DNA of 64,000 bases from an uncultured Candidatus Peribacteria bacterium (GCA_964580035.1 CAZOJC010000002.1:8205-72204), one strand, 5' to 3'. Counted from the stretch's first letter, positions 339 through 53,357 are shown. Notes: generated from the letters alone by a model not told the origin. Numbers and translations: made by a program.

Positions 339-1268
339 TTAGTAAAATTTTTCCATTTTCCAGTGCTTCACATCGCCTGTAAAGAGTTTAAATGAGAAGG
401 TTATAGAAAGTTGAATGTCTCCATCATTATTTGTTTCGGGGGCTGAAATATTTGCGCACTCTGCAAGTTTATTTGCTAGTTCCGAATCAACTTTAATTGA
501 CCGTTCTCGCTCTATAACCAACTGAGGAGTCATTTTTAAATGACGATTAATGAGATCGATAATTTTCTTATTTCCGATTGAGTGAACGAGTGATCCAATT
601 TTCATTCCCGTTAAACAAGCTGCTGCAACATTCTTCACACTATTTTCTATTGCCGTAGCAAAAACTCTATGACAAAGCGCAGGCGTAAGAGAGTGCTGTG
701 CACTGAATAATTCATGCACTAGTATAATGGGGAACGTGACGATCTGATTCTCAAAAAGCTTTGCACGCACTTTGTCGTTCAACGCTTCTTCTTCACTTGA
801 GTGAAGCTGTATTTGACTGGATTCTGCACTCCTCAGAATTTCAAACATGACGAATCCGTCTATACCTTGCTTTCCATTTGATATTTGAAAAGTGAGACTG
901 TCTTGTCTTTCTGCAAATTTTTTAAAATACTCTTGAGAAAGTGGCTCCGTCGTAGAAACTGGTATGACTGGCCTTTGTCCTTGGGTACTCAAGAGTGCTT
1001 CTGCAATTTGAGAATCTGTTACCATTCCTCGCTTGTAAGCTTCTAGCAAAAGGCTTTCGTCGTTTATATTTACAGGAGCTAGACCTCTAAATGCTTGCTC
1101 AACTCTATTTTTAGTTCTTGTAGTTAAAATTACTGGAGGTGTGGTATTTTCATTATTTGTACCGCTAATATTACTCATAAATTGCATTTCATTCATTTCG
1201 TTCAGGTTCTCAGAAGGCATACTGCCGTGCATCCTCTCAGATTCTAGAAAATGCTCAAGAGAAAACAT
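339..1268 (-). CDS. hypothetical protein (309 aa), visibly AT-richer than its neighbours
   Basis: Long uninterrupted ORF transcribed divergently from ileS. No motif I can assign. Confidence 0.5.
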   Translation of the reverse strand: MFSLEHFLESERMHGSMPSENLNEMNEMQFMSNISGTNNENTTPPVILTTRTKNRVEQAFRGLAPVNINDESLLLEAYKRGMVTDSQIAEALLSTQGQRPVIPVSTTEPLSQEYFKKFAERQDSLTFQISNGKQGIDGFVMFEILRSAESSQIQLHSSEEEALNDKVRAKLFENQIVTFPIILVHELFSAQHSLTPALCHRVFATAIENSVKNVAAACLTGMKIGSLVHSIGNKKIIDLINRHLKMTPQLVIERERSIKVDSELANKLAECANISAPETNNDGDIQLSITFSFKLFTGDVKHWKMEKFY

Positions 1269-1341
1269 TCTTCATCAAAAAGGCCATCCATCATATTTGA
1301 TATCTCATTCCTTTCATCATCGTTTTAGCTATACTCTCCCT

Positions 1342-4300
1342 ATGTTCTCACCCGTCGATCCTAAACAGTCATTCCCCGCTCTGGAAGAGGAAATTCTCAA
1401 GAGATGGCGGGAAGACGACACGTTCAAGAGATCTCTTCAGCACCGAGCTGAGTCTGACGCTTTCCACTTCTACGATGGTCCTCCGTTTGCTACCGGCCTC
1501 CCGCATTACGGGCATATTCTTGCTGGAACCATCAAAGATGTCATTCCGCGTTACCAGACGATGCGCGGGAAGCATGTGAAGAGACGATTCGGGTGGGATT
1601 GTCACGGCCTACCGGTCGAACATCAGATAGAGAAGCAGCACGGACTGAAGACAAAGCGAGACATCGAATCTCTCGGCGTGAAAGAATTCAATGACCTCTG
1701 CCGGAATGCCGTACTTCGTTACACTCGCGAGTGGACGACGACGGTGGAACGGCTCGGCCGATGGGTAGACATGGATTACGACTATCGCACGATGGATCCA
1801 GATTACATGGAGAGCATTTGGTGGGTGTTTAAGCAATTGTACGATAAGGGCTTAATTTATGAAGGGTATAAAGCCATGCATCTCTGCCCTCGGTGTGAGA
1901 CGACGCTGAGTAATTTTGAAGTGACGCAAGGATACAAAGAAGTGTCAGACTGCACTGTCACTGCGAAATTTGCCTTGGTGGAAGACCCTCACACGTTCCT
2001 CCTCGCATGGACGACCACTCCTTGGACGCTTCCGGGAAATCTCTTTCTGGCAGTGAATCCGGAAGAAACCTACGTTTCATGTACGAGGCAGAATGACGAT
2101 GCGATCTACATCCTGTCTCAGCGATCATTTGCGGCAAGTGGGGGGAGAAGAATTGATGAAATACATGAGAACGACGCTGATCCACCGCTCAAACAAATCG
2201 CCACTCTTTCAGGCAAAGACCTCATCGGCAAACGTTACACGCCGGTGTTTCCCTACTTTGCAAGCAAGTACGAGCATGCGTTTCGCGTGGTGGGTGGAGA
2301 CTTTGTTACATCAGAAGAAGGGACGGGGATCGTGCACATTGCACCAGGCTTTGGAGAAGACGACTTCTCTGTAGGAAAAAGAGAGGGGGTAGCAATGCTG
2401 CAGCACGTCCTGCCGGACGGCACATTTACGGCCGATGTCACGGATTTTGCGGGGATGAGCGTCAAACCCAAAGATGCTCCCTCGTCTACAGATAAAAAAA
2501 TTGCAGAGCATCTGAAGAACGCAGGACTCCTTTTTGAGCAAAAAAGTTATACACACTCTTACCCGCACTGCTGGCGGTGCGACACACCGCTCATTAATTA
2601 CGCCACGACATCGTGGTTCGTTGCCGTAGAAAAGATAAAGCAAGAAATGCTGGCGGCGAATGCGAGAACCACGTGGGTGCCATCGGCGATACGCGATGGG
2701 CGATTTGGCAAATGGCTGGAAGGCGCGCGCGACTGGGCGATCAGTCGTAGCAGATATTGGGGAACACCCCTTCCGATCTGGAGAAATAGACAGACTGGCC
2801 AATTGGAAGTGCTCGGCTCGCGTGATGATCTTATGAATCGTGTGCCAGGACGATTCACAAAAATAACGATTGCTCGGCATGCCGAGAGTGTAGGAAATGT
2901 GCAGCAAATCTACCAAGGCAAGTCACCGGGAACGAACCTCACACCTACAGGAAAAAAACAAGCGGCGGCGCTTGGTAAGGCACTAGAAAGAAACTGCGGC
3001 ATCCCCGTCACAGCCATCTACCATTCTCCGTTGGCTCGTACAACTCAAACGGCGGCGGCCGTCGCTCGTGTCTTTTCTGTTCCACTCACGCAAGACGAGA
3101 GGCTCCGAGAAGTGTCATTCGGGGAGTATGAAGGCAAGCATATTGACTTCGATGATCTCACCTTCGTCCGGCAGAGACGTGCTCACAAGCTCAGCAAGGG
3201 GCAGGTGGAGAGCATCTATCATTTTGAGGGAATGGAAACGTGGCACGATATAGAGCTTCGGACGAAAGAATTCTTAGAAGACATTCTCCCCCGTCACCGC
3301 GGTGAACATATTGTGATTGTCACACATGCGGACATTGTGATGAATTTCACCCATTTGTTCACAGGAATAGACAAGGCGAAAATTGCACACCAGCCCTATC
3401 CAGAGCTTGCACAGTACAGAACATTCTACTGGGATCATAGTACGCAGACTCAGCTCGACCTACACAAAGAAACCGTGGACGAAATCACGTGGCACGGAAC
3501 GGGCACGCCCAAAGACGCGAGAGTGGAATTGACCGTCGCTCGTCACGGCGAGACGGATTGGAACAAGGCAGGCATTTTCCAAGGTCACAGCGATCAGCCG
3601 CTCAATGCCGATGGCATTCTGCAAGCAGAAGAGCTCGCCGCAACCCTCGATCCAAGCGACTACGATGTCATTCTCTCTTCAGATTTGCTCCGTGCCCGCC
3701 AAACGGCAGACATTATCGGAGCAAAGTGGGAACGCGAGGTGATCATCTCTCCTCTCTTTCGAGAGCAGAATCTGGGAGAGTGGGAAGGAAAAACAAAAGC
3801 CGACGTTCTCAGCCTCTTTCCTCACTACGTGCAGGATTTCTTCTCTCGAATACACAACGTTCCCGGAGGGGAAGATCTCGCGTCTCTCGCAAAACGGGTG
3901 GCAGCTGGTCGAGATGAACTGCTCAGAACGTACGCAGGCAAGCGAGTGCTGCTCATTTCGCACGGACGCTGGATCAATGCACTCGCACGCATCGAAACGA
4001 ATGAACCGATATTCTCTCCTGTTGCGAATGCGGGGGTAATGGAATTCACTCTCGAGCCTCGCTTGTCACGCGTAGCGGACGTCATGGACTGTTGGTTCGA
4101 GAGCGGTTCGATGCCGTATGCTCAAGAACACTTTCCGTTTGATGCAGCAAAACAAGAGACAAAAAAAGGGAAGAAATCTAAAAACGTTCTCACTCCCGCA
4201 TCGTTTCCGGCAGACTTCATCGCAGAAGGACTCGATCAAACGCGAGGCTGGTTCTACACGCTCACAGTGCTGGGCGTTGCCCTCTTTGGAGAAGCGCCGT

Positions 4301-5673
4301 TTAAAAACGTCATCGTCAACGGTATCGTGCTCGCTGAAGATGGCAGGAAAATGAGTAAGAGCCTCAAAAATTATCCCGAGCCAACGCAAGTGGTGGAGCG
4401 GCACGGTGCCGATAGCGTACGCTTTGCCCTCATGGCATCGCCGGCTGTGCGCGCTGAGGATCTTCGCTTCTCGGAGACCGTAGTTGAGGACGCACTGCGA
4501 AATGTGCTCTTGCCCCTGTGGAACGCGTACAATCTCTTCGTAACGTACGCGAATGCGGCAGCATGGGAACCTCCAAGTAATTGGACTCTCAAGAAGAGCA
4601 TGTCGAAAGATCCACTCGACCTCTGGATCGTCGCCCACACTCAATCACTCGTCAACGCACTCACCACAGAGCTCGACCGCTACGATCTTTCTGCCAGCTG
4701 CGCTCACTTGAGCGAATCAATTGACGGTCTTACCAATTGGTACATCCGCCTCCAGCGCCGTCGCTTCGCGGGGAAAGAAGAAGGGCGAGAAGAGGCTCTC
4801 GATACGCTCTACCGCGTGCTACTAACGTTGAGTCAACTGCTGGCACCATTCTGTCCATTCATCACTGAATCTATCTATACGAATCTCGTGAAAGAACCAT
4901 TCGGCAGCATTCATCTCACTGATTGGCCTGCATCTATTGCCCTCACAAAGAAAGACAGAGAAGTGTTGGCGCTGATGAACAATACACGAGCAGTGGTCAC
5001 GCTGGGTCTCTCGCTTCGCTCTGATGCGAAAGTGAAAGTGCGATGTCCGCTCCAATCTGTGACAGTGGCGCTCTCCCCTTCCGATACGAGTGGTGTGCGA
5101 GAAGACATCATACGAGACGAATTGAATGTGAAAGAAGTGAAGATCGTCAGCGATCCGGGGTCTCTGGCTCGCGCGTTTGTGGCCGTCGATGCACGCAAAG
5201 TAGGACCGCGCCTTGGCGCGAAAGTACAAGATATCATTCGTGCCGGAAAAGAAGGACGCTTCACGCAGAAAGGCGACACTATCAGCATTGAAGGAGAGAC
5301 GCTGCAGGCAGATGAAGCGAAAATAATGTATGCCGGCGCGGAAGGGCAGAATATCGCAGCCGACCACGGCATCATCGTACGACTCGATATCACAGTCACT
5401 GAAGAACTCAAGCGTGAGGGAGACGCGCGTGAGATCGTGCGTATGGTCCAGAAACTGCGGAAGAGTCATGGCCTCTCGTTCACCGATACCATATCGCTCT
5501 CAATCACCGGAGCCGATGATGTGCTCGCCTCTCACAAGACACTCATCGAGAAGGAAACGAGAGGACGCATCTCAAAAAATCCAGAGGCAGGTACGTCGTC
5601 AAATATACCTCCCGTAACAGAGACATTCTCTCTCGATGATCGCGAGATTACGATTTCTTTCCTACCCCTCTAA
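1342..5673 (+). CDS. ileS: isoleucine--tRNA ligase carrying two embedded histidine-phosphatase domains (1443 aa)
   Basis: Track ORF 1141..5673. The first 67 codons overlap the divergent gene and look non-protein-like, so the start is placed at ATG 1342 (MFSPVDPKQSFPALEEEILKRW). Class I signatures are present: PHYGH (HIGH), editing-domain TTPWTLP and GTGIVHIAPGFGEDD, WFESGSMPYAQ, and KMSKS. Confidence 0.9.
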   Translation: MFSPVDPKQSFPALEEEILKRWREDDTFKRSLQHRAESDAFHFYDGPPFATGLPHYGHILAGTIKDVIPRYQTMRGKHVKRRFGWDCHGLPVEHQIEKQHGLKTKRDIESLGVKEFNDLCRNAVLRYTREWTTTVERLGRWVDMDYDYRTMDPDYMESIWWVFKQLYDKGLIYEGYKAMHLCPRCETTLSNFEVTQGYKEVSDCTVTAKFALVEDPHTFLLAWTTTPWTLPGNLFLAVNPEETYVSCTRQNDDAIYILSQRSFAASGGRRIDEIHENDADPPLKQIATLSGKDLIGKRYTPVFPYFASKYEHAFRVVGGDFVTSEEGTGIVHIAPGFGEDDFSVGKREGVAMLQHVLPDGTFTADVTDFAGMSVKPKDAPSSTDKKIAEHLKNAGLLFEQKSYTHSYPHCWRCDTPLINYATTSWFVAVEKIKQEMLAANARTTWVPSAIRDGRFGKWLEGARDWAISRSRYWGTPLPIWRNRQTGQLEVLGSRDDLMNRVPGRFTKITIARHAESVGNVQQIYQGKSPGTNLTPTGKKQAAALGKALERNCGIPVTAIYHSPLARTTQTAAAVARVFSVPLTQDERLREVSFGEYEGKHIDFDDLTFVRQRRAHKLSKGQVESIYHFEGMETWHDIELRTKEFLEDILPRHRGEHIVIVTHADIVMNFTHLFTGIDKAKIAHQPYPELAQYRTFYWDHSTQTQLDLHKETVDEITWHGTGTPKDARVELTVARHGETDWNKAGIFQGHSDQPLNADGILQAEELAATLDPSDYDVILSSDLLRARQTADIIGAKWEREVIISPLFREQNLGEWEGKTKADVLSLFPHYVQDFFSRIHNVPGGEDLASLAKRVAAGRDELLRTYAGKRVLLISHGRWINALARIETNEPIFSPVANAGVMEFTLEPRLSRVADVMDCWFESGSMPYAQEHFPFDAAKQETKKGKKSKNVLTPASFPADFIAEGLDQTRGWFYTLTVLGVALFGEAPFKNVIVNGIVLAEDGRKMSKSLKNYPEPTQVVERHGADSVRFALMASPAVRAEDLRFSETVVEDALRNVLLPLWNAYNLFVTYANAAAWEPPSNWTLKKSMSKDPLDLWIVAHTQSLVNALTTELDRYDLSASCAHLSESIDGLTNWYIRLQRRRFAGKEEGREEALDTLYRVLLTLSQLLAPFCPFITESIYTNLVKEPFGSIHLTDWPASIALTKKDREVLALMNNTRAVVTLGLSLRSDAKVKVRCPLQSVTVALSPSDTSGVREDIIRDELNVKEVKIVSDPGSLARAFVAVDARKVGPRLGAKVQDIIRAGKEGRFTQKGDTISIEGETLQADEAKIMYAGAEGQNIAADHGIIVRLDITVTEELKREGDAREIVRMVQKLRKSHGLSFTDTISLSITGADDVLASHKTLIEKETRGRISKNPEAGTSSNIPPVTETFSLDDREITISFLPL
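2851..3450 (+). other. histidine-phosphatase (PGM/CobC/SixA superfamily) module 1 inside IleRS
   Basis: Motif order is ITIARHAES ... HSPLARTTQTA ... SFGEYEG ... IVTHADIV, which matches the R-H / R / E / H catalytic constellation. The RHG motif reads RHA here. Confidence 0.65.
3520..4059 (+). other. histidine-phosphatase module 2 inside IleRS
   Basis: Canonical motifs LTVARHGETDWN ... SSDLLRARQTA ... NLGEWEG ... LISHGRWI. The module is followed directly by the IleRS motif DVMDCWFESGSMPYAQ. Confidence 0.8.
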
Positions 5674-6065
5674 TGGCAGATCAATCTGGCTCTCTACCCC
5701 TCAGGCTCGTCATAAAGACGCTCTGCAACATCGGGATTGTCTTTGGTATGAATACACTCGTACCGCAGTACTTTTCCGTAGAGGGCGGAGCTGCTGCGTT
5801 CGTTGTTATTGGCATTCTTGTTTCGTTTTTGAATGTCATCGTCCGACCAATTCTCGTCGTACTCACTCTTCCCTTTACGCTGACAGCCTCCATCATCGCC
5901 TTCATTCTCGTCAACGGAGGCATCCTTTGGCTCGTCTACCAGACGACACTCCTGATGGAATCGACTCAGATAGCGCTCATTATTGGCGGAGGAATCGGGG
6001 GATGGATCGTAGTCAGCATCGTGTTTGGATTCTTCAATTGGCTCTTAAAGCACCTGCTCAAATAA
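5673..6065 (+). CDS. DUF360 / phage-holin-family-4 type small membrane protein
   Basis: 130 aa with four hydrophobic helices. VIGILVSFLNVIVRPILVVLTLPFTLTASIIAFILVNGGILWL is typical of this family. The ATG overlaps the ileS stop (TAATG). Confidence 0.65.
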   Translation: MADQSGSLPLRLVIKTLCNIGIVFGMNTLVPQYFSVEGGAAAFVVIGILVSFLNVIVRPILVVLTLPFTLTASIIAFILVNGGILWLVYQTTLLMESTQIALIIGGGIGGWIVVSIVFGFFNWLLKHLLK

Positions 6066-6089: not shown

Positions 6090-7235
6090 GTGAAGATCGC
6101 TTACTGCACCAACGTCCGACTGCCGAGCGAACGAGCCCACGGGCATCAAATTGCGCATGTGTGCGATGCGATGGTGCGCCTCGGGCATGAAGTCACGATT
6201 TTCTGCCCGTTTCGCCTGTCTGCCATCGACCAGTCGTTTTCTTCCTACTACGGCGTCGATTCTCGCATACGATGCGTGACACTTGGATCGTTTGATCCTA
6301 TCGATGCTTGGTGGCTTCCCGGAATACTTGGGCTCTGGAGCATGAATTTCTTATTAAGAAAGTACATGCATCATGCGCTCGTGACGGAATCATTCGATAG
6401 TGTGTACACCCGTTCTCCCGCACTACTTCCTGCCTTACTTCTTACGGGTAAACCCGTGATTCTTGAACTGCATCAGTTGCCTCGTTTCAGAACGTCACTT
6501 CTGGCTCGATACTGTAACCGTTGCACGCGTGTCGCGTGCCTTACAACAACGATGCGAGCGCATTTGATTGCAGCGGGCGTGCAGCCAGAGCGTATCATCG
6601 TCGCATCCGATGCAGTCGCCATTGAACGCTTCGCACAGTTACCCACTGCACAAGAGGCCAGAGCACACTTCGGCATCGTCACTGACAGAATCGTCGTCGG
6701 TTATGTTGGGCGTCTCAAAACGCTAGGGCAAGAGAAGGGTGTTGGCATCCTACTTCGAGCACTCAAACAATTATCATCACAGCAGCGATATTATGGATGT
6801 ATTGTCGGTGGGCCCGATTCTGACAGAAAAGAATATGAGTCTCTCGCTCGCTCGCTCGGTTTAACAAGTGATGAAGTCTGCTTTGTAAAGGAAATACCTA
6901 GTACTGAAGTGCCCAAAGCGATGGTCGCCTGCGACATTCTCGCTATGCCACTCACTGATTTTCCACTATCACGCAACTATATGTCGCCGCTTAAAATGTT
7001 CGAATACATGGCGACACATAGACCTATAGTAACGTCTGATCTTCCCACCATTCGCGATGTACTCAGTGAAGAAACAGCTGTGTTCTGCGATCCTGGGGAT
7101 CCGGTAAGCCTCGCAAACGCATTGGAATGGGTGAGAGATCATCCTCAAGCTGCCGCTCAGCGGGCAACTGCGGCATTCGCGCTTGTGCAGGAACACACGT
7201 GGACCAAGCGCATGGAACGCATTCTCGCTCTCTAA
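6090..7235 (+). CDS. glycosyltransferase family 4 (GT-B, RfaB-like)
   Basis: GTG start with MKIAYCT... The C-terminal half has the GT1/GT4 pattern (GYVGRL...KG...LL.A, then E-x7-E-like FEYMATHRPIVTSD). Confidence 0.75.
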   Translation: MKIAYCTNVRLPSERAHGHQIAHVCDAMVRLGHEVTIFCPFRLSAIDQSFSSYYGVDSRIRCVTLGSFDPIDAWWLPGILGLWSMNFLLRKYMHHALVTESFDSVYTRSPALLPALLLTGKPVILELHQLPRFRTSLLARYCNRCTRVACLTTTMRAHLIAAGVQPERIIVASDAVAIERFAQLPTAQEARAHFGIVTDRIVVGYVGRLKTLGQEKGVGILLRALKQLSSQQRYYGCIVGGPDSDRKEYESLARSLGLTSDEVCFVKEIPSTEVPKAMVACDILAMPLTDFPLSRNYMSPLKMFEYMATHRPIVTSDLPTIRDVLSEETAVFCDPGDPVSLANALEWVRDHPQAAAQRATAAFALVQEHTWTKRMERILAL

Positions 7236-7244
7236 AAACGCTCT

Positions 7245-8330
7245 TCACAGCCTGCAGATGTAATCAATAATGCGATCTCCCGTCTTTCCATCCCACTCTT
7301 TCGGCACTTCAATGTGTGCAGGTGTTCTCGATGTTACATACTGCATGACAGACTCACAGTCTTCTCTACGAGAAGGATCTACGAGAACATTGCTGCCGCT
7401 CTCGACTGTGACTGGACGTTCTGTATTTCTGCGGAGCGTAAAACAACGCTTATGCAGCACCACTGCCTCTTCTTGAATGCCTCCTGAATCTGTGAGAATG
7501 AACTCGCATCTATCGAGGGCGCTTAAGAACTCAAGATATCCCAGAGGCTCAATGATCTGACACTCGCTCGCGAGTGCCATGAGTGCGTTGGATGATGCGA
7601 GTGAGCGCATGAGCCTTGGATGAGCTGCGATGTATACGCGGCAATGTTCGTTTACTCTGGTGAGCAAACGTAAGGCATGGCCTAACGGCTCTTCATGATC
7701 GACATTGCTGGGCCTATGGAGCGTGCTTAAGACAAATGGCTGATGAGGGGAAAACGACGGCGTGCGAGAGCGAATGAAAGGCAGAGTGCTCAGCAGTGTG
7801 TCAGCCATCGTATTGCCGACGAGCACGGGAGTACCGGAGCGCTGCTCGCGAATCACATTCTCCACGGCAGAACGCTCTGTGCAGAAGAGTAAGCGCGCCA
7901 TGCCGTCGATGGCAATGCGATTCAGCTCTTCGGGCATCTCCTGATCGAATGATCGCAATCCCGCCTCGATGTGCGCGATGGGAATCGAACATTCGTGCGC
8001 TGCACCTGCGGCTCCCACTGCTCCATTGACATCTCCATACACAAACACCCAGTCCGGCTTGAGCGATGAAAACACTGTGAGTAGCGCGTCGTGTGTTTTT
8101 GCAATCATATCGACTCTGCTGAGCCCGCCTATTTCTAGATTAATGGTAGGGGTGGGAATAGTAAGCTGCGTGAAAAAAATATCAGATAGCAAGGGATCGT
8201 AGTGTTGTCCTGTGTGAATGATGGTATGACGTATGGCCGCTTCTGGCCTCCTGTCAATAGCGCGGCATATAGCTGCTAATTTTATGAAATTCGGTCGGGC
8301 TGAGACGACGCTGCAAATATGCATGTTCAC
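7245..8330 (-). CDS. wecB: UDP-N-acetylglucosamine 2-epimerase (non-hydrolysing)
   Basis: N-terminus ICSVVSARPNFIKLAAI ... HTGQHYD, then DSGGIQEEA near the C-terminus. The start is GTG 8330 or ATG 8324. Confidence 0.9.
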   Translation of the reverse strand: MNMHICSVVSARPNFIKLAAICRAIDRRPEAAIRHTIIHTGQHYDPLLSDIFFTQLTIPTPTINLEIGGLSRVDMIAKTHDALLTVFSSLKPDWVFVYGDVNGAVGAAGAAHECSIPIAHIEAGLRSFDQEMPEELNRIAIDGMARLLFCTERSAVENVIREQRSGTPVLVGNTMADTLLSTLPFIRSRTPSFSPHQPFVLSTLHRPSNVDHEEPLGHALRLLTRVNEHCRVYIAAHPRLMRSLASSNALMALASECQIIEPLGYLEFLSALDRCEFILTDSGGIQEEAVVLHKRCFTLRRNTERPVTVESGSNVLVDPSRREDCESVMQYVTSRTPAHIEVPKEWDGKTGDRIIDYICRL

Positions 8331-8448
8331 AGCGTAATTGAAATGCTGGCATCTTCACAGAGAAATCTGGTGCTTTGAGCCATTGCGAGCCGTCTCTCAT
8401 TGTAACGCGTTCATGAAAGAGCTACTCTCAGTGAGATTTTTTCTCTCT

Positions 8449-9294
8449 ATGACTCAAGATAATAAAGAAATATATCGCTCGCACCACGATGCCATCATCA
8501 GCAAGCGCTGGCATTCACCACATGCGATTCGCAGATACAACCACCATACCCAGTACCAAGCATTTCTGGAGTGCGTTCCTGTGGGCTGCACAGTGGTCGA
8601 TGCAGGATGCGGTGAAGGAGTGCTCAGCGTTCTTCTCGCCAAGCACGGCTGCCGAGTCATCGGCGTAGACATCTCGGAGCCAAATATAGCTGAAGCAAAA
8701 GCGTTCGCATTGAGAGAGGGCGTGGCTGATCGATGTGAGTTTTTAGTGGGAGACGCCGAACGTCTTCCTCTTCCCGATAAGAGCGCCGATGTGGTCGTTT
8801 CGAGTCATGTCCTAGAGCATCTTCCTGATTTCGTGCAAGGCGTGCGCGAATTGAATCGCGTAGCGAAGACACTCGTCGTCGTCGCCATCCCCACCTGCCT
8901 CAATCCCGCCTCATGGGTACTCCTTGGGGGCGACAAGTACTGGACCGTTTCCCGTCGCACTCCCTACGCAATCTTTGTAGGGTTCTTTCGAGTGGTGGGG
9001 GCCATGCTGCGCGGACAGGAAGGCGTGAACGAAACGTACGCGGGGCATCCTGAATTGATACACATTCACAGGTTCCCACACCGTGGCCGAATGCTACTGG
9101 AATTGGGAGGATTACAGGTCGTTCGTTACAGGGCAAGCTCGTTTCCCATTCCCTATCTCTCTTTCCTCGTACCAGTGTCTAGGTTGCTAGGCGCCTTCCG
9201 CTACTGGCCTCTGTTTCGTAACTTTGGATTCGGCACCACGTACGTCTGCCATCCCTGTCATGCCGCAGAGTCATACACTTCATCAAACCAGTGA
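8449..9294 (+). CDS. class I SAM-dependent methyltransferase
   Basis: Motif I is VVDAGCGEGVLSVLLAKHGCRVIGVDIS, with an acidic post-I residue and VVSSHVLEHL. ATG 8449 (or 8413) is preferred over the track start at 8338. Confidence 0.75.
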   Translation: MTQDNKEIYRSHHDAIISKRWHSPHAIRRYNHHTQYQAFLECVPVGCTVVDAGCGEGVLSVLLAKHGCRVIGVDISEPNIAEAKAFALREGVADRCEFLVGDAERLPLPDKSADVVVSSHVLEHLPDFVQGVRELNRVAKTLVVVAIPTCLNPASWVLLGGDKYWTVSRRTPYAIFVGFFRVVGAMLRGQEGVNETYAGHPELIHIHRFPHRGRMLLELGGLQVVRYRASSFPIPYLSFLVPVSRLLGAFRYWPLFRNFGFGTTYVCHPCHAAESYTSSNQ

Positions 9295-11072
9295 GACAGT
9301 TGGACGATGTTCATGAGCAAGTGTAAGTGGTAGCCTCTGCGATCCCGGTGCTCATGCCATTGAATACGGACTTTCTCCACATCGAACAGCTCTCGTATCT
9401 TCTGGTTTTCCAGCGCTTCTTCAACGAGAGGGGCGCACTCTCTTCTCAGCCATTTGGCAACGGGCGGATAGAACGAAGCCTTGGGCAGTGAGTACAGATG
9501 CTTGGGGAGCATGTTTCGGTACGCATCTTTCAGCAACGTCTTTGTCCGACGCAGATGTACGTGCCAGTTGCCTGGCGTGTGAGAGATGAGATCGATCAAT
9601 CGTGAATCCAGAAAAGGAACTCTCGCCTCCACGCCGCTCGCCATTGTCGTGCCGTCCACCAGCTTCAGAGACTCATCTATTAACCATGTTCTCCTATCTG
9701 CTTCCATTGCTTCTCTCAGCGCATCTGCTGAATCATGAAAAAAGGGCAAGAAGTACTCACCGATAGCAGCCGTCGAATACCATCCTCGCGCTACTGATTG
9801 CACTTCAGAGATCGGACGACTCATCAGACGAGTCCAGAGCGCTGCTCCTGGAGAACCTTGACTGACATCAGATGCCACACCATAGCGAATGGCAGCCCAT
9901 CTACGAATCGATGGCGGTATCCATCCAAAGGCACGGAGCATGGCAACAATCCTGTAGCGAGGATATCCGCCAAATAATTCATCGCCTCCAGCACCGCAGA
10001 GGATGACATCGACGTGAGGCTTCGCGATTGTTGCCAAAAGATACTGAGCAACGGAAACATGATCGCTATTGGGGAGATCGAGGGCACGAGCGCACGCACG
10101 AAATGCATCCCTGTACTGCGCAGCGGTAATCGTCAGCTCTGTGTGTGAAGTGCCGTAGTGCGATGCGGTGAGACGCGCGAGATCGGCATCCGCATTGAAT
10201 CGGCTGGCACCTTCAGCTTCAGTAGCTTCAAACCTTGCAGTGAAGGTGGAGATTGGCTGCTTGCTCACTTGAGCCATGTGATGGAGAATGACTGAGGAAT
10301 CCATTCCTCCGCTCAAAAAAATACCCACTGGTTGATCTGATACCAAATGTTCTTCCACACACTGTCTCATGATATCGGGGAGAGTCTTCTTCAATTGTCC
10401 TCGGCTGGTAGCCTGCCACGGCGCTCTCTGTGTGTGTATCTCACGCGAAGAAGTCTTCCCATCTCGGACAACCATCATGGTCCCCGGCGTAATCGGGGTG
10501 ATGCCGACACAGAGGGTGTGCGGCCTTGGAACGTACTGCAGATGCATGTACAAAGAGAGTGCTTCGTAATCTATAGGAAGTTTTTCTGGCACTGCTTTCA
10601 AGAGCGCCCTCACTTCGGAAGCGAATGCAAGATGTCCTTCTATGAATCGCGTGTAGAGAGGTTTGATGCCACTTGAGTCTCGTGCGAGTATCAATTCACG
10701 GGTCTTCGTATCGTAGATCGCGAGGGCATACATGCCTCTTACGCTTCGTAAAAAGTCATACCTGTCTGAGGAATAAAGGTGGAGGAGCACTTCTGTATCG
10801 GTTCTCGTGCGACAGGAAAATCCTCGCGCCTGAGCAAGGGCACGAAAGTTAAATATTTCTCCGTTAAATACGATACCTACCGTGCCATCCTCGCTCCACA
10901 TTGGCTGCGCGCCTGCCGGAGAAGGATCGAGAATGGCAAGCCGTGCATGACCGAGAGAAATGCCATGGCCACAGTAGATGTCATGCCCGTCGGGTCCTCT
11001 GTGCATGAGGGCTCTTGTCATCCGCGTAATGACCTCTGGGTGCTCTCCGATGCATCCGGCTATGCCGCACAT
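9258..11072 (-). CDS. asnB: asparagine synthase (glutamine-hydrolysing) family amidotransferase, paralog 1
   Basis: N-terminal nucleophile MCGIAG. Contains the GATase-II block and the PP-loop FLSGGMDSS. Its 3' end overlaps the convergent methyltransferase gene by 37 nt. Confidence 0.85.
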   Translation of the reverse strand: MCGIAGCIGEHPEVITRMTRALMHRGPDGHDIYCGHGISLGHARLAILDPSPAGAQPMWSEDGTVGIVFNGEIFNFRALAQARGFSCRTRTDTEVLLHLYSSDRYDFLRSVRGMYALAIYDTKTRELILARDSSGIKPLYTRFIEGHLAFASEVRALLKAVPEKLPIDYEALSLYMHLQYVPRPHTLCVGITPITPGTMMVVRDGKTSSREIHTQRAPWQATSRGQLKKTLPDIMRQCVEEHLVSDQPVGIFLSGGMDSSVILHHMAQVSKQPISTFTARFEATEAEGASRFNADADLARLTASHYGTSHTELTITAAQYRDAFRACARALDLPNSDHVSVAQYLLATIAKPHVDVILCGAGGDELFGGYPRYRIVAMLRAFGWIPPSIRRWAAIRYGVASDVSQGSPGAALWTRLMSRPISEVQSVARGWYSTAAIGEYFLPFFHDSADALREAMEADRRTWLIDESLKLVDGTTMASGVEARVPFLDSRLIDLISHTPGNWHVHLRRTKTLLKDAYRNMLPKHLYSLPKASFYPPVAKWLRRECAPLVEEALENQKIRELFDVEKVRIQWHEHRDRRGYHLHLLMNIVQLSHWFDEVYDSAA

Positions 11073-11078
11073 ACGCTA

Positions 11079-13952
11079 CTACTGTAGAGCATGAGATTCG
11101 CTTTGCATACGAGTAGTCAGAGAGTGAGCGATTCTTCTCGCATTGGCCATCACTGTGAGCGTGTGCGGACCGCTCGGAAGGCAGGGGAACAGGGAGGCAT
11201 CAGCACAGTACGTGGAAGGATACCCCGCTATCTCGCCGTCCACTGTTGCAGAGAGAGGACCAGTTCCGTCAATTGGCACTGATCCTGCATAGTGCGAACT
11301 GGATCCTTCAGGTAGCAAGAGAGTTTTTACGGGCCAGAGCCCAAGAGCTCGAAGGGCACGCCGCATGCGGCGCACGGCTACCAGACGCTCTTGCTTCTCT
11401 TGCTGCATGTCTTCACGAGGAGAGATGTCCGTACCGTTTTCATGCCATTGCACATATGCGTTGGGTTCGGATGAATGGAAGCGCATATCAGCGATGACCA
11501 GTCCTGGAGAGAATAGTCGCGCAATGTCGAATGCACTTGGAATGGGAAGCGGAATGCTGCCCAGTAAACGAAAGAGGAGCAGACTGCGATAGCTGTAGAG
11601 CTGAGCAATGCTCGGGCCCTTCGGGGCGAGAGCATCGTTGAGCACCAGCTGACACAGACTCATACGCCGCTCAGGACCCGTCTCGAGGCATCCAGACGGC
11701 CGAATCGTGGCAATGTATGCGTGAGGTTTCGCAATGAAGGGAATGGCGTCCTTCATGCCCTTCGACGCTGCAAGTATGCGAGCACTGCCGACCGCTCCTG
11801 CGCACAGAATCACTTTCTTTGCCGCAGCGATTGTTTCCACTGTGCGTGTTCCCAGCTTTCTCCCTCGCACTTCTCCCCCGTTCTTGGCAGTGCGAATGTG
11901 ATCTACGATGAAATGTGGCAACCACCGGAAGCGAGGGCTTCGCTGCAGTTCTCGCAGTGTTTCGGTGGGACGATACACGGCATGCTCTTCATCTGAGTAG
12001 TAATCAGTATCTCTGAGTGTTGACGCCCGCCTTGATCCGAGGGGGGCGGTGAGCACCGCGGAAAGAGGCTGCAGCAACGAATATCCTTCGCGCCGAAACC
12101 ATGCTGCAGAAGCACGAAATCTCTCGAGGCATGCTGTGGCGTGATGATCGACTGGTAACGGGGGTTGCACTCGATACTCATCACTTGCTCCGCTCACTCC
12201 AATGCGATCAATCACTTCCTGATATTCTCGCTTCATATCATCTGGAGGCAGTCGCATCTCGCGGAGAGTATCTGTCGAAAAGGCGGCACATGCTGCTCCC
12301 CACACGGCACCCAAACCTCCTTCTGCCAGTGTCTCTATGACTTGGATAGCATGCTGAGTGGTGTTGAACTCTTCTGTATGACGCGTCACAAATGCCCTGT
12401 TTCCGCTCGTCATGCCTCCACCAAGTCCGCCGCGCAAACCATCGACTGGAATGGCTGATACGTCATTCCCAAGGAACCAACGCCACTGATCCTCTCTCTC
12501 GCGCCTGAGTGACAGAAAATCGCTCACGGGCTCGTGGAGGAGAGCGGGGCCCTGCACGCCTCCATCGATCATCGCAACCGAACGGCCACACTCAATCAGA
12601 GCCAGTACTGCATGCACTCCTGCCGGGCCACTGCCGATGACAATGACATCAGTATCCATGGGCGTACTGCATGAGTGTTTTTGGACGATAGTACCAGTAG
12701 AGCATTCTCGGAAGCGCTCGTGCGACACGGAGAGTGGGACGCAGACAGAGAGAAGCCACGTTACAATCGAAAAGCGGCGAGGCAAGAGAGATGTCGATGA
12801 TCGCGGCGTGCATTCAGCTATCGCTGCTGCAACGATGAGACATCGCTGCAGGTGACATGAGGGATATCGTATGCGTGAGGCAAAATCGAGTGCCCGTAAA
12901 CGACCTTGCGATCGCCAAATCCAAGGAGAGAGTATCTTTGAATCTAACGAATGAACGGCAAGGGCTTGCAACATCCTCTGCACCTCCTCACTCGTCGGCT
13001 CAGATACGCAGCAGTCGCTGAGCACATACCGCAGCAATGCTTCAGCGTACGCGACCGTGCTTTCTGGAGAAGACAACAGTGATGACCGCAGCGATCGCGG
13101 AGTGATGTCCACAGTACGGAGAAGTGGCTGAGGGTCCATGATGATGCTCTCTGCAGCTCCTCTCACATTGCTGACGGTGATTGGTGGATTTTTCATCATC
13201 CGACACGCAACAGCAATCATCAAACAAAGCGAAATCGGCAGGTGAAGGAGCGGAGGATTGAGGCCCTGCGCCTCTGCAATCGTCGAACAGAGCTGATTGT
13301 ACGTGTAGCGCTCAGGGCCACCCATTTCCCAGTGCTTGCAGACTTCTTCCTGCTGCGCCAGAAGGCACTGCTCAATAATACTCGCAACATCATCGCGATG
13401 GATCGGCCAGTAGCACGCAGTTCCCGGTCCGACGATGGGGCACACGGGCAGGCGAGAGAGAGTGGTGAGCATTGCAAACACTCCGCTCTTTGCAGAACCA
13501 TAGATGACGCTACTACAGAGCGTGACCACTGGCACAGTTCCTGCGCGAAGGATATCGTCTGCTCGTTTTTTCGTATCGCCGTACAGCCCTCGCCTCTTGA
13601 GATGTGACGATTGAGTGGAGAGATGAATAATTCTTTGAATACCGTTCTCGGCGCACACTTCTGCCACGATATGAGCGCCTTCCACATTCACCTGTTCGCT
13701 GTCTTTTTCGTCATTCTTTCGTGCGGCCAAATGAATGAGCATGTCGACACCCTCAGTCGCTGCGCGCAACGCAGTGCGATCTGTTACATCCACTCGTAAC
13801 CATGTGCACCGAGGGGAATTCTCACAGCCTTCAGGAGGGTCTCCTCGTGTGAACGCTCGAATACAATAGTTCCTGCGTGCGAGATGAGCGACCACTGCCT
13901 GCCCGACGAATCCACCTGCGCCGGTGACTGCAATGACCATTGGCTTACGCAT
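11079..13952 (-). CDS. fusion protein: N-terminal NAD-dependent epimerase/dehydratase (SDR) plus C-terminal FAD-dependent GMC-type oxidoreductase (957 aa)
   Basis: The N-terminus VIAVTGAGGFVGQAVVAHL is an SDR Rossmann fold. At about aa 436, DVIVIGSGPAGVHAVLALIECGRSVAMIDGG is an FAD Rossmann fold. The C-terminal YCADASLFPCLPSGPHTLTVMANARRIA resembles the GMC C-terminal motif. There is no stop codon between the halves. Confidence 0.75.
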   Translation of the reverse strand: MRKPMVIAVTGAGGFVGQAVVAHLARRNYCIRAFTRGDPPEGCENSPRCTWLRVDVTDRTALRAATEGVDMLIHLAARKNDEKDSEQVNVEGAHIVAEVCAENGIQRIIHLSTQSSHLKRRGLYGDTKKRADDILRAGTVPVVTLCSSVIYGSAKSGVFAMLTTLSRLPVCPIVGPGTACYWPIHRDDVASIIEQCLLAQQEEVCKHWEMGGPERYTYNQLCSTIAEAQGLNPPLLHLPISLCLMIAVACRMMKNPPITVSNVRGAAESIIMDPQPLLRTVDITPRSLRSSLLSSPESTVAYAEALLRYVLSDCCVSEPTSEEVQRMLQALAVHSLDSKILSPWIWRSQGRLRALDFASRIRYPSCHLQRCLIVAAAIAECTPRSSTSLLPRRFSIVTWLLSVCVPLSVSHERFRECSTGTIVQKHSCSTPMDTDVIVIGSGPAGVHAVLALIECGRSVAMIDGGVQGPALLHEPVSDFLSLRREREDQWRWFLGNDVSAIPVDGLRGGLGGGMTSGNRAFVTRHTEEFNTTQHAIQVIETLAEGGLGAVWGAACAAFSTDTLREMRLPPDDMKREYQEVIDRIGVSGASDEYRVQPPLPVDHHATACLERFRASAAWFRREGYSLLQPLSAVLTAPLGSRRASTLRDTDYYSDEEHAVYRPTETLRELQRSPRFRWLPHFIVDHIRTAKNGGEVRGRKLGTRTVETIAAAKKVILCAGAVGSARILAASKGMKDAIPFIAKPHAYIATIRPSGCLETGPERRMSLCQLVLNDALAPKGPSIAQLYSYRSLLLFRLLGSIPLPIPSAFDIARLFSPGLVIADMRFHSSEPNAYVQWHENGTDISPREDMQQEKQERLVAVRRMRRALRALGLWPVKTLLLPEGSSSHYAGSVPIDGTGPLSATVDGEIAGYPSTYCADASLFPCLPSGPHTLTVMANARRIAHSLTTRMQSESHALQ

Positions 13953-14802
13953 GCTCGAGACGAGTACCAGATCCGCGCCAGCTCACTCCTCGATACGGCG
14001 AAATGTGAACATCACGAAATCCACTCCCAAACCAACGGCGAATGCGTTCCTCTGAAATAAACCACGTTTGCGGAGCGTTCAGCTTATCAAATACATTCAG
14101 CATATTGCGACTGAGGCTCAATTGTCTCCAATTTTGGAAGTACTGATAGTACGGCAGACTGCGCAGTGGCAAACGATAGATCGTGTGCACTGGGAGAGAG
14201 ACAAGGAGTGTGAGAATCCACGCAAGCCAGAGAACCATCCTGCGAGGCAGATGTCGAATAATGAGGTATTTCACAGGCTCCAATACGTATTGATTCAAGA
14301 AATTTCCTTCCTTGCTGTACACCCACACAATCACCCGCCCGCCAGCAGCGCAATGAGATGCAATGTTGGCGAATGAAGCATCGGGGTCATCTGTATGATG
14401 CAAAACGCCGATAGAGTACACGACATCAAAGACTGTATTGAGCTGCATCTTTGCAATGTCGTCTTGGAGTATTCGAACATTCTGATAATTTTTTGTTCTC
14501 TGTATGGCGCTCTCCGTTGCGTTTAAGTCTACTCCCACGACGCTCTTTGCCACAGGCGCCACAAAACTGACGTGCTGACCTCCCCCGCAACCACAATCGA
14601 GCACGGTCTTGCCTCTGAATGTCTCCCACGTGTTTGGGAATATCCATTCGGAGAACAACCAACGATTGTCGTCTTGAAGGTGATTCCACTGCCATGTCCA
14701 CTGCGATTGCTGATGTTGCTTCATAGGCAAAAGCATACCTGATGACACGATTACTGTGCCATACATGGGAGCATTCCTATTCAGCTGACACTGTGGGAGC
14801 AC
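13945..14802 (-). CDS. class I SAM-dependent methyltransferase
   Basis: Motif I is VLDCGCGGGQHVSFVAP, with VVGVDL and DVVYSIGVLHH. GTG 14802 is the track start and ATG 14766 is an alternative. The stop overlaps the start of the SDR-GMC gene. Confidence 0.75.
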   Translation of the reverse strand: MLPQCQLNRNAPMYGTVIVSSGMLLPMKQHQQSQWTWQWNHLQDDNRWLFSEWIFPNTWETFRGKTVLDCGCGGGQHVSFVAPVAKSVVGVDLNATESAIQRTKNYQNVRILQDDIAKMQLNTVFDVVYSIGVLHHTDDPDASFANIASHCAAGGRVIVWVYSKEGNFLNQYVLEPVKYLIIRHLPRRMVLWLAWILTLLVSLPVHTIYRLPLRSLPYYQYFQNWRQLSLSRNMLNVFDKLNAPQTWFISEERIRRWFGSGFRDVHISPYRGVSWRGSGTRLEHA

Positions 14803-15577
14803 TCATCAAGCGCTCTCTACAGAGCACCACCATACCCTTCCACGCATCCTGCCATCGAATCTTCTTCCCCTCGTCTACGGATCTCGGGCTGTACTCAATC
14901 GGCACTTCTTTGATAGCAATTGATCTCCTCAGACACTTGCCAGTGATCTCCGCCTCAAGCTCGAATCCTCTGCTCACAAGCGCAAAAGAACGAAGAAGAT
15001 CTGTAGGCAGAAGCTTGTAACAGGTGTAGCTGTCTGTAATGTGAGCGCCAAACAAAAGATTTGAGAGCTTCGTGAGTAGTTGGTTTCCGAGCCTGAATCG
15101 CCAATGCGTACTGGGATTCCACTGCAAGAAACGAGATCCAAACACAGCGCACTGAGGGTGAGAGATGGCCACCTGCAGCAGAGTTGAAATTTGCGTGGGA
15201 TGATACTCCAGATCTGCATCCTGAATGATGGTGTACTGACCAGTAGCCTGCTTCAGTCCTGCGATAATTGCCGACCCTTTTCCGCCGTTTTTCTGTGTAA
15301 TAACACTGTCTTCAGCGCGCGCATGCGCACGAATGATTGCAAGTGAATCATCAGTCGATCCATCATCGATGTAGATATGCTGTGCATCGCTACAGTGCTC
15401 ACGCAGCGCGTTCATGATTGTGACGATCGTCCTGCTTTCATTGTACACGGGAACGAGAATGGAGAGAGTGATGCTATTCATGTCATGTAATGAAATCGTG
15501 GGCACTGGTGAGCATGCATCATACATTTTTTGTGCGATGGGCGATATTTCTGAAAAAAAATCAGAATGTACGTGCAA
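14777..15577 (-). CDS. glycosyltransferase family 2 (polyprenol-phosphate sugar transferase-like)
   Basis: LSILVPVYNESRTIVTIMNAL ... IYIDDGSTDDS ... IQDADLEY (DxD). An alternative start is ATG 15481. Confidence 0.85.
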   Translation of the reverse strand: MHVHSDFFSEISPIAQKMYDACSPVPTISLHDMNSITLSILVPVYNESRTIVTIMNALREHCSDAQHIYIDDGSTDDSLAIIRAHARAEDSVITQKNGGKGSAIIAGLKQATGQYTIIQDADLEYHPTQISTLLQVAISHPQCAVFGSRFLQWNPSTHWRFRLGNQLLTKLSNLLFGAHITDSYTCYKLLPTDLLRSFALVSRGFELEAEITGKCLRRSIAIKEVPIEYSPRSVDEGKKIRWQDAWKGMVVLCRERLMSAPTVSAE

Positions 15578-15626
15578 AAAAAGCCTCTATGATATAGAAT
15601 GAATCTTCGCGTTCATTCACACCACT

Positions 15627-16026
15627 GGGGATGACAGGCTTCGACAGCGTGATTCTGCGTTGACTGCGTCACGATCCGGGATTGCTCTGGTTCCCGATAC
15701 CCACCGTTGCACCAATTAATTGCCAATAGCAATTTCATGGCTCGCGTGCAGGGCATTGCGAACTCCGTTCGCCTTGACCAGCTCGTTGCAGCTTAGTTCT
15801 GTTTTTTAACGGAACACGCCTCCCCGCCGATCCTCGCTGAGCGGATGAGGCGTCACTAGCGGGGCTGGCTTTCCGTCCGACGGTGCGGATAGCCAACATC
15901 CTTCCGTCATCACTCTCACCCTTTCCTTGTTCCTTCCTGATGGGCTGAGAGAATTGGAAGGAACATGATCGTACTGACCTTTGGCGTACACGTTGGACCC
16001 GGGTTCGACTCCCGGCATCTCCACCA
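15627..16026 (+). ncRNA. ssrA: tmRNA (SsrA), standard one-piece form
   Basis: The 5' GGGGATGACAGGCTTCGACAGCG pairs with the 3' ...GGACCCGGGTTCGACTCCCGGCATCTCCACCA. This gives a 7-bp acceptor stem with a G3:U wobble, a T-arm GGGTTCGACTCCC and an encoded CCA. An internal tag ORF ends in ...LVAA-stop. A TATAGAAT -10-like box lies about 27 nt upstream. Confidence 0.9.
15722..15796 (+). other. tmRNA tag-peptide reading frame (ANSNFMARVQGIANSVRLDQLVAA-stop)
   Basis: GCC resume codon after ...CACCAATTAATT, then 24 sense codons to TAG at 15794..15796. A later in-frame GCT (ARVQGI...) is an alternative resume point. Confidence 0.55.
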
Positions 16027-32480: not shown

Positions 32481-32496
32481 ATCGTGGAGTATAAAG

Positions 32497-53167: not shown

Positions 53168-53357
53168 ATTCGTTGGGAGTAAAAGAGAGCGATGAAAACT
53201 TCGATTGACTGATAGAAAGAGGAGCAGCGCAGTCAAAGGAGAGAATCCTATCATTTTTTTGTATTTTGTCAATAGATGTATTTTTGATGAAAATACTGAG
53301 GAACAATCAGCAAGTATTCGGCTTTCCATAACAAGTGTGAGAATCTATGATTGCTGC

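Follow-up and report, generated by a model that had tools for sequence, protein, structure and literature searches.

Two histidine phosphatase domains nested in the type-2 isoleucyl-tRNA synthetase of Candidatus Peribacteria

The isoleucyl-tRNA synthetase (IleRS) considered here is encoded by the ileS gene of an uncultured Candidatus Peribacteria bacterium, in a stretch of 64,000 nucleotides (GCA_964580035.1 CAZOJC010000002.1:8205-72204) that we refer to as the window, and it carries two histidine phosphatase (HP) domains, HP1 and HP2, inside the synthetase itself. According to our analysis, to which we would give a probability of about 0.7, this is a functional type-2 IleRS of the single-copy type with two nested branch-1 phosphatases of the PhoE/CobC/PspA/GpgP kind, selected in the IleRS context. 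IleRS with an embedded phosphatase is an architecture already known and uncharacterised, and the window protein, at most 65% identical to any relative found, is a further divergent member of it.

The gene encodes 1443 amino acids (aa) and a stop codon within a single open frame (1141-5673, + strand) that the list of open reading frames (ORFs) gives without stop or frameshift, and its start methionine at nucleotide 1342 opens the sequence MFSPVDPKQ, the counterpart of the MFDPVDPKQ start of homologues. TIGR00392, the NCBIfam ileS equivalog of class Ia, matches with 863.7 bits (cutoff 621.4), its two stretches separated by the inserts, and Pfam tRNA-synt_1 (PF00133, E 3.4e-137) is likewise divided in two, the first stretch stopping at aa 506, position 269 of the 414 of the model. 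The hallmarks of an IleRS are all there, namely HYGH at aa 55-58, TTPWTLP, GTGIVHIAPGFGEDD, WFESGSMPYAQ from aa 918 and KMSKS at aa 1003-1007, and their motif residues are invariant among 61 relatives (alignment A3), including W223, T224-T226, W228, G327, G329, H332 and G338 of the editing domain in connective peptide 1 (CP1), and W918, E920, S921, G922, K1003, M1004, S1005 and K1006 further on. ORF, TIGR00392 and Pfam thus agree with an earlier, sequence-only reading of this DNA, which had claimed a complete IleRS with two histidine phosphatase modules and no stop codon or frameshift between the parts. An AlphaFold2 (AF2) model of aa 1-1200, built on a 61-sequence alignment, has a predicted local distance difference test score (pLDDT) of 85.9 and a predicted TM-score (pTM) of 0.83, and its best matches in the PDB are S. 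cerevisiae IleRS, C. albicans IleRS, P. megaterium IleRS2 and T. thermophilus IleRS (TM-score to the target, TMt, 0.69-0.87). Type-2, eukaryote-like enzymes match the model at E 1e-59 to 1e-68 with 27-30% identity, whereas type-1 enzymes reach only 1e-39 to 1e-47 with 16-19%; the window protein is a type-2 (eukaryote-like) IleRS of Peribacteria (Peregrinibacteria, Candidate Phyla Radiation or CPR).

Both inserts are recognised by Pfam as His_Phos_1 (PF00300) in two stretches (E 4.8e-81; score 271.5 bits, cutoff 21.7), and hidden Markov models (HMMs) made from relatives find HP1 at aa 504-702 with 326.8 bits and HP2 at aa 728-906 with 183.4 bits, the best Pfam stretch of HP2 being aa 731-886, so that the two domains lie where the sequence-only reading had expected them (Table 1). 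Alignment to PhoE (1EBB/1H2E) gives R512, H513, N519, R566, E590 and H662 as the catalytic set of HP1, and alignment to PhoE, to CobC (6NRU) and to further phosphatases of solved structure gives R734, H735, N741, R784, E808 and H874 for HP2, the two R-H pairs falling at nucleotides 2875-2880 and 3541-3546. A complete residue set, as had been claimed for each block, is indeed present in both, with one correction from the PhoE alignment: the general-acid Glu is E590 in 'RLRE' of HP1 and E808 in 'LFRE' of HP2, and the GEYEG and GEWEG motifs do not supply it; in HP2, both Glu positions of GEWEG vary among relatives. In an alignment of 81 Peribacteria sequences (MAFFT) all six catalytic residues of HP1 are invariant (81/81), five of those of HP2 are invariant too, and the second His of HP2, H874, is found in 80 of the 81 with one alignment gap. 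Block-mean pLDDT in the model of aa 1-1200 is 80-98 for HP1 and 61-97 for HP2, and the HP1-HP2 fragment modelled alone reaches 90.9. Pfam score, catalytic core and alpha/beta phosphoglycerate-mutase-like fold all place the two domains in branch 1 of the histidine phosphatase superfamily, and by their sequences both look catalytically competent.

Both phosphatases sit in CP3, a variable peripheral subdomain that extends from the CP2-3 linker (ARDWxxSRxRYWG) to the second Rossmann half, and whose topology is unlike among the Candida, Thermus (Zn motif) and S. aureus enzymes (PMC7191050, PMC7955072). The order within it is first CP3 elements, HP1, the DLHKETVD element, and HP2 filling the loop ahead of RVADVMDCWFESGS. 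Around the entry to HP1 the AF2 model has strands 479-481 and 488-490 and helix 494-500, then directly the HP1 strand 505-512, and the links from CP3 strands to HP1 and HP2 are short and well predicted. D706, L707 and H708 of the element between the domains are invariant and K709 nearly so; the DLHK of the window protein is the counterpart of DLHRPxID in CPR IleRS that contain a single HP, and therefore the modules do flank a genuine IleRS element, while HP2 stands where those relatives have a CxxCGGxMxR knuckle. With the CP2-3 linker before them and the second Rossmann half after them, the HPs are not a terminal fusion, in which the sequence-only reading was right; its phrase 'inside the catalytic core' holds for the primary sequence alone, since structurally both modules lie in CP3.

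The two-HP IleRS is a trait of the whole lineage and Peribacteria-wide. Scanning species-representative genomes with the alignment of the insert, we found 116 genomes with a relative and kept 80 loci, nearly all labelled Peribacteria, Peribacteraceae or Peregrinibacteria and most of them covering both HP domains. Their insert regions are 42-62% identical to that of the window, and a single ORF spans the IleRS and both HP domains at 80 of the 80, so that the architecture looked for in related genomes is there. A search with the full protein returned at least 120 clusters, their proteins about 1370-1640 aa long and without exception containing PF00133 and PF00300; the top 120 matches, representatives of clusters at 90% identity, are 53-65% identical to the query, its own cluster excepted. 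Mean pairwise identity, calculated over 66 complete sequences, is 0.80 in CP2 and the CP2-3 linker, the most conserved segment, 0.64 in the anticodon-binding domain, 0.60 in HP1 and 0.53 in the CP1 editing domain.

Embedded phosphatases are found far across the CPR. An exhaustive HMMER search with aa 440-960 against 1.84 billion cluster representatives gave 130 matches at E <= 1e-30, and the majority of the 150 HMMER matches listed are IleRS of about 1130-1275 aa with one HP between the CP2-3 linker and DLHRPxID and with the knuckle CxxCGGxMxR intact, according to the consensus RHGE...SHGDPL...DLHRPxID...CxxCGG...WFESGS. By profile search this single-HP form occurs in Paceibacterota, Wolfebacteria, Campbellbacteria (A2996_01775), Yonathbacteria, Niyogibacteria, Zambryskibacteria and some Peregrinibacteria, PF00300 being present in 119 of the top 120 matches. 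Among 141 embedded HP domains (133 clusters at 50% identity) the residues R, H, R and H are each kept in 141 of 141, the Glu in 137 (with Asp in 3 more) and the Asn in 130. These single-HP enzymes resemble the window protein in being type-2, with His_Phos_1 at the HP1 site and the catalytic residues kept; the window protein differs from them by its diverged HP1 (RHA, THAD and an RRAHK motif) and by the second HP in place of the knuckle. It has the informal architecture of a CPR IleRS with embedded HP, and its closest genomes are metagenome-assembled genomes of Peribacteria/Peregrinibacteria.

Because HP1 occupies the same site, and because P0017, a relative with one HP, clusters with it by neighbour joining, HP1 is probably the Peribacteria version of the single HP found CPR-wide. 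HP2 is a second, lineage-specific insertion that replaces the knuckle. We rejected the idea that it is a recent duplicate of HP1, as the two are only 24% identical and each HMM gives the opposite domain about 50-90 bits against 180-330 for its own; HP2 is nearer to free-standing phosphatases (mean 29%, up to 40%). From the alternatives left by the sequence-only reading, two separate insertions or a duplicated insert, the former is consequently the better one. True tandem duplication is seen only for HP2, in the three-HP IleRS of P0181/P0245 (Ca. Peregrinibacteria CG1_02_54_53) and L053:4374-9399, where the doubled HP2 copies are 45-48% identical mutually and 74-80% to orthologues, both with the full catalytic set.

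In other relatives the HP is found at further places: between WFDSG and KMSKS (P0363, P0307, P0253), or about 75-80 aa past KMSKS, between the catalytic and the anticodon-binding domains (P0310, P0325, P0252, P0326). P0331 has four HP stretches, and over the relatives the HP occupies at least four sites of IleRS with a copy number from one to four. Two side observations belong to the same survey: the first protein of the profile search, P0415, is 2230 aa long and named isoleucyl-tRNA synthetase and is without PF00300, and at L011:2163-7365 the stop-to-stop ORF reaches about 500 aa upstream of the IleRS start.

As to the kind of phosphatase, the sequence neighbours of HP1 and HP2 are PhoE, CobC and PspA, and both domains show the LRE...G-W/Y-EG pattern of PhoE/CobC-type phosphatases. 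Foldseek neighbours of the modelled HP1-HP2 fragment are GpgP (6S2Q, 4QIH), PhoE (1H2E), TIGAR, CobC (6NRU), PspA (4IJ6), the E. histolytica phosphoserine phosphatase and a riboflavin-pathway HFP (9MMH), all at TMt 0.6-0.8, with 0.74-0.80 for PhoE, GpgP, PspA and CobC. In sequence and in predicted fold, the nearest matches are therefore small-molecule phosphatases and not phosphoglycerate mutases (PGMs). The model for cofactor-dependent PGM (dPGM), TIGR01258, gives 21.2 bits for HP1 and 43.4 for HP2 where its cutoff is 81.7, and for the gpmA equivalogs, whose cutoffs are 305-421, the values are 20-45 bits. For CobC (TIGR03162, cutoff 162.9) the single domains score 81.4 (HP1) and 103.4 (HP2), the 174.5 bits of the whole protein exceeding the cutoff because the two domains add up, and the PspA-type model NF045917 (cutoff 350) gives 84.8 and 74.3. 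At equivalog level an identity as dPGM, CobC or PspA was accordingly rejected.

Free-standing branch-1 phosphatases, namely PhoE (1EBB/1H2E), the alpha-ribazole phosphatase CobC (6NRU, 6E4B), the PspA type (4IJ5/6, 5ZKK) and GpgP Rv2419c (4PZ9, 6S2Q), share with HP1 and HP2 the fold and the complete catalytic set and are their best sequence matches (E 1e-13 to 1e-18), but each of them is a protein of its own, about 200 aa long and 25-32% identical to HP1/HP2, neither HP1 nor HP2 passes any of their equivalog models, and their substrates are not transferable. In the RNase H/acid phosphatase (Rv2228c type, NF005567) a nucleic-acid enzyme likewise carries a CobC-like HP; this family ranks second among the NCBIfam matches of HP2, its 100.7 bits lying far under the 326-bit cutoff, and related proteins are among the homologues of the window protein. 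There, however, the fusion is terminal and the partner is RNase H, whereas the HPs of the window are nested.

The only mention of the architecture that we found in the literature concerns SR1, a lineage we take to be related to Peregrinibacteria, and we found no functional study. Kantor et al. 2013 (mBio 4:e00708-13, PMC3812714) describe in one sentence, silent on insertion sites, residues and function, an SR1 IleRS divided by a pair of 'phosphoglycerate mutase' domains. As in the window, two domains of the PGM family (histidine phosphatase) interrupt an IleRS of a CPR lineage; unlike the window protein, which has no NUDIX Pfam match, the SR1 enzyme is described with a Nudix domain too, the comparison being one by description. 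The paper on complete Peribacteria genomes does not mention the protein. In databases several relatives are named 'isoleucyl-tRNA synthetase/bisphosphoglycerate-dependent phosphoglycerate mutase' or '/broad specificity phosphatase PhoE' by JGI, the NCBI names being 'class I tRNA ligase family protein' and 'hypothetical protein' (e.g. OGJ62383.1), and the single-HP enzymes of the CPR are annotated 'class I tRNA ligase family protein' or 'isoleucyl-tRNA synthetase'. The sequence-only reading, which knew of no such synthetase, had itself allowed that an architecture common and annotated in databases would take away the novelty and leave the observation; with the SR1 report, the JGI fusion names and the single-HP IleRS common across the CPR, this is what happened.

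Other domains nested in synthetases offer a wider comparison. A curator-recognised precedent of an enzyme domain nested in IleRS is NF040702 (ileS_w_GNAT), to which the window protein, having no acetyltransferase domain, scores 290.2 bits against a cutoff of 1999. In class Ia generally, hydrolytic or accessory modules inserted in the Rossmann fold as 'connective peptides' are likewise familiar from the CP1 editing domain and from Thermus CP3, which binds Zn; CP3 is known as the variable point of insertion. CP1, however, is universal and hydrolyses mischarged aminoacyl esters, whereas the HPs belong to a phosphoryl-transfer superfamily without known role in aminoacylation.

From these data we propose that IleRS with two HP domains is probably bifunctional. 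The synthetase part would charge tRNA-Ile normally, and each HP module, going by the chemistry of the family, would hydrolyse a phosphomonoester via a phospho-histidine intermediate, with H513 (HP1) and H735 (HP2) as putative nucleophiles, R512/R566/H662 and R734/R784/H874 forming the phosphate pockets, and E590 and E808 as the likely general acids. By analogy, the substrate class is most likely a small phospho-metabolite or a nucleotide-type phosphomonoester, because every close neighbour in sequence and fold is an enzyme of this sort. In evolutionary terms, HP1 would be the local form of the CPR-wide HP, and HP2 would have been inserted later, Peribacteria-wide, into the knuckle loop and duplicated once more in a sublineage. 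Retention over the superphylum, strictness of the catalytic residues, multiplication of copies and the several insertion sites suggest that the phosphatase activity is selected in the IleRS context.

Several observations weigh against this interpretation. No segment of the protein is less conserved than HP2 (mean pairwise identity 0.43), although HP2 keeps its catalytic set while evolving fastest. HP1 has RHA and THA where RHG and HG are the norm of the family (RHA in 53 of the 81 relatives, THA in 81 of 81), and such replacements might alter its activity. Other enzymes, too, are found inserted in these IleRS: a GNAT domain is nested in the CP1 region of P0151/L036 (aa 276-382), together with two HPs, and in that of P0347 and P0478, together with one or more HPs, P0347 having also an extra weak acetyltransferase match between WFDSG and KMSKS in a cluster that lies on contigs of up to 2.1 Mb; P0324 has an AAA_18/AAA_33 P-loop kinase-like domain (aa 746-869) and one HP, P0326 a Ser_hydrolase alpha/beta-hydrolase domain (aa 562-734) beside its post-KMSKS HP, and SR1 a Nudix domain. 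With such a variety of nested enzymes, a permissive scaffold fits as well as functional coupling does. Moreover, when the 141 embedded HPs were compared by a crude all-versus-all BLAST with 13 free-standing ones, a small and biased outgroup, the mid-site and post-KMSKS HPs scored higher against those embedded in CP3 than against the outgroup, so that their spread to other IleRS sites may be intragenic duplication and not independent capture, and if so, the argument from recurrent fusion is weakened.

The strongest competitor, which has a fair amount in its favour and which we still rather doubt, is that ordinary metabolic phosphatases reside in a permissive loop of an essential, constitutive protein and have no link to aminoacylation; a PspA-type phosphoserine phosphatase, a GpmB/PhoE-type sugar-phosphate phosphatase or even the phosphoglycerate mutase of the cell would be candidates. 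The nearest neighbours in sequence and fold, all of them small-molecule phosphatases, speak for it, as do the variable and surface-exposed nature of CP3, the other enzymes hosted by related IleRS, and the absence of another HP-domain gene among all six-frame ORFs of the 64-kb window when searched with the HP1 and HP2 HMMs. What such moonlighting leaves unexplained is why IleRS specifically retains an HP across many CPR phyla and why two, three or four copies and at least four sites occur in the same enzyme; HP1 is, besides, constrained like the anticodon-binding domain, and the dPGM, CobC and PspA equivalog scores of each domain are far under their cutoffs.

It is also possible, and we suggest it tentatively, that the HPs of the preferred reading are a CPR-wide catalytic accessory functionally coupled to aminoacylation. 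Such an accessory might act on a nucleotide-type by-product, on an adenylate-mimicking inhibitor at the entrance of the active site or on the tRNA acceptor end; alternatively, a phosphatase gated by the charging state of the enzyme might report isoleucine or tRNA status to metabolism.

A more specific proposal, which we regard as unlikely, is that RNA ends are healed, as the sequence-only reading had speculated: one or both HPs would free damaged tRNA-Ile of a 3'-phosphate, or of what the opening of a 2',3'-cyclic phosphate leaves behind, and the tRNA could then be recharged in cis. The host does bind tRNA, and along the sequence the HPs lie near the CP2-3 linker, by which the tRNA CCA pocket is lined (PMC7955072). 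The HP and P-loop kinase-like insert joined in P0324 recall healing enzymes made of a kinase and a phosphatase, and the second-best NCBIfam match of HP2 is the bifunctional RNase H/acid phosphatase mentioned above. Against this stand the close neighbours, all of them small-molecule enzymes, and a Pfam scan that gave no RNA-binding domain or ligase partner; RNA 3'-phosphatase activity, besides, is not known from any member of the histidine phosphatase superfamily.

Still less probable would be a purely structural role, with the HP folds as docking, tRNA-binding or dimerisation modules without catalysis. CP3 of human IARS1 is a protein-protein docking surface (PMC13439101), HP1 has Ala for Gly beside both catalytic His, and HP2 evolves fast, but the nucleophile His, both Arg, the Glu and the second His are invariant in HP1 and HP2 over the 81 sequences, the one gap excepted, and the same residues are kept in the 141 embedded HPs of very divergent clusters and in the duplicated third copy, already diverged to 45-48% identity; this conservation would be hard to explain without catalysis. 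An artefact, be it a chimeric assembly, a hidden frameshift or an intein-like mobile element removed after translation, may practically be discarded, because 80 independent assemblies and more than 120 protein clusters have the same single-ORF design, the ORF is continuous, GC content over 2851-4059 (0.48-0.56) equals that of the remaining ileS with no compositional break, the connections between CP3 strands and HP domains are short and well predicted, and the inserts are conserved enzyme domains with no Hint, intein or homing-endonuclease Pfam match.

Table 1. Parts of the ileS gene, with nucleotide positions in the window
Feature	Position	Strand	Basis
ileS, type-2 IleRS with two nested histidine phosphatase domains	1342..5673	+	ORF, TIGR00392, Pfam, AF2
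HIGH signature HYGH, aa 55-58	1504..1515	+	sequence reading; H55 and H58 invariant in A3
CP1 editing domain, ~aa 201-420, with TTPWTLP and GTGIVHIAPGFGEDD	1942..2601	+	sequence reading
CP2 and CP2-3 linker ARDWAISRSRYWGTPLPIW	2602..2787	+	linker definition from PMC7955072
First CP3 elements RNRQTGQLEVLGSRDDLMNRVPGR, leading into HP1	2788..2850	+	AF2
HP1, histidine phosphatase branch 1, aa 504-703	2851..3450	+	Pfam His_Phos_1, HMM, PhoE alignment
Conserved CP3 element DLHKETVDEITW, aa 706-717, between HP1 and HP2	3457..3492	+	alignment
HP2, second histidine phosphatase, aa 727-906	3520..4059	+	Pfam stretch, HMM, CobC alignment
Second Rossmann half and SC-fold; WFESGS at 4093-4110, KMSKS at 4348-4362	4060..4521	+	sequence reading, second tRNA-synt_1 stretch
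Anticodon-binding domain, aa 1093-1237	4618..5052	+	Pfam Anticodon_1, E 3.3e-24
DUF5915 C-terminal domain, aa 1254-1407, typical of type-2 IleRS	5101..5562	+	Pfam, E 1.5e-25

The surroundings of ileS show one conserved neighbour, which gives no functional hint. It is a small protein of 130 aa with four transmembrane segments (5673-6065, + strand; Pfam Phage_holin_4_2, 34.7 bits) that begins at the ileS stop codon, and in 62 of the about 65 related Peribacteria loci that extend far enough a homologue comes right after ileS with the same orientation. Immediately upstream of the gene, 301-1350 is AT-rich (GC 0.36-0.41 against about 0.52 elsewhere), and the 309-aa ORF at 339-1268 (- strand) has no Pfam match and no homologue in the 80 related loci. 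Downstream, 6090-15586 holds a polysaccharide-type cluster with GT4 and GT2 glycosyltransferases, a UDP-GlcNAc 2-epimerase, two methyltransferases, an NAD-epimerase fusion and an asparagine-synthase homologue (9261-11075, - strand), a second paralogue of the latter being encoded at 30603-32513 (- strand). A tmRNA gene follows at 15627-16026 (+ strand; Rfam 101.9 bits, tag ANSNFMARVQGIANSVRLDQLVAA), whose 3' part is overlapped by a stop-to-stop ORF for a serine recombinase (15809-17356, - strand; Resolvase and Zn_ribbon_recom); the overlap may mark an element integrated at ssrA. Further on, a giant protein of 2237 aa with 13 DUF11 repeats, DUF7507 and DUF7619 (46634-53344, - strand) is presumably a cell-surface protein.

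The names given to these enzymes have a consequence for annotation. Several relatives are labelled phosphoglycerate mutase by JGI, and P0001, a TARA fragment, carries the KEGG orthology label K15634 (gpmB), while HP1 and HP2 stay under every PGM cutoff; metabolic reconstructions of the CPR may therefore miscount glycolytic PGM. In a broader sense, over a large part of bacterial diversity (CPR/Patescibacteria) an essential enzyme of translation carries one to four phosphatases that are apparently active. If pure moonlighting were the case, this would be a clear example of nested domain capture in streamlined genomes. If, on the other hand, the phosphatases are coupled to aminoacylation, they would be catalytic domains of a non-editing class new to aminoacyl-tRNA synthetases, and may reveal a need specific to the CPR, for instance in detoxification, repair or nutrient sensing.

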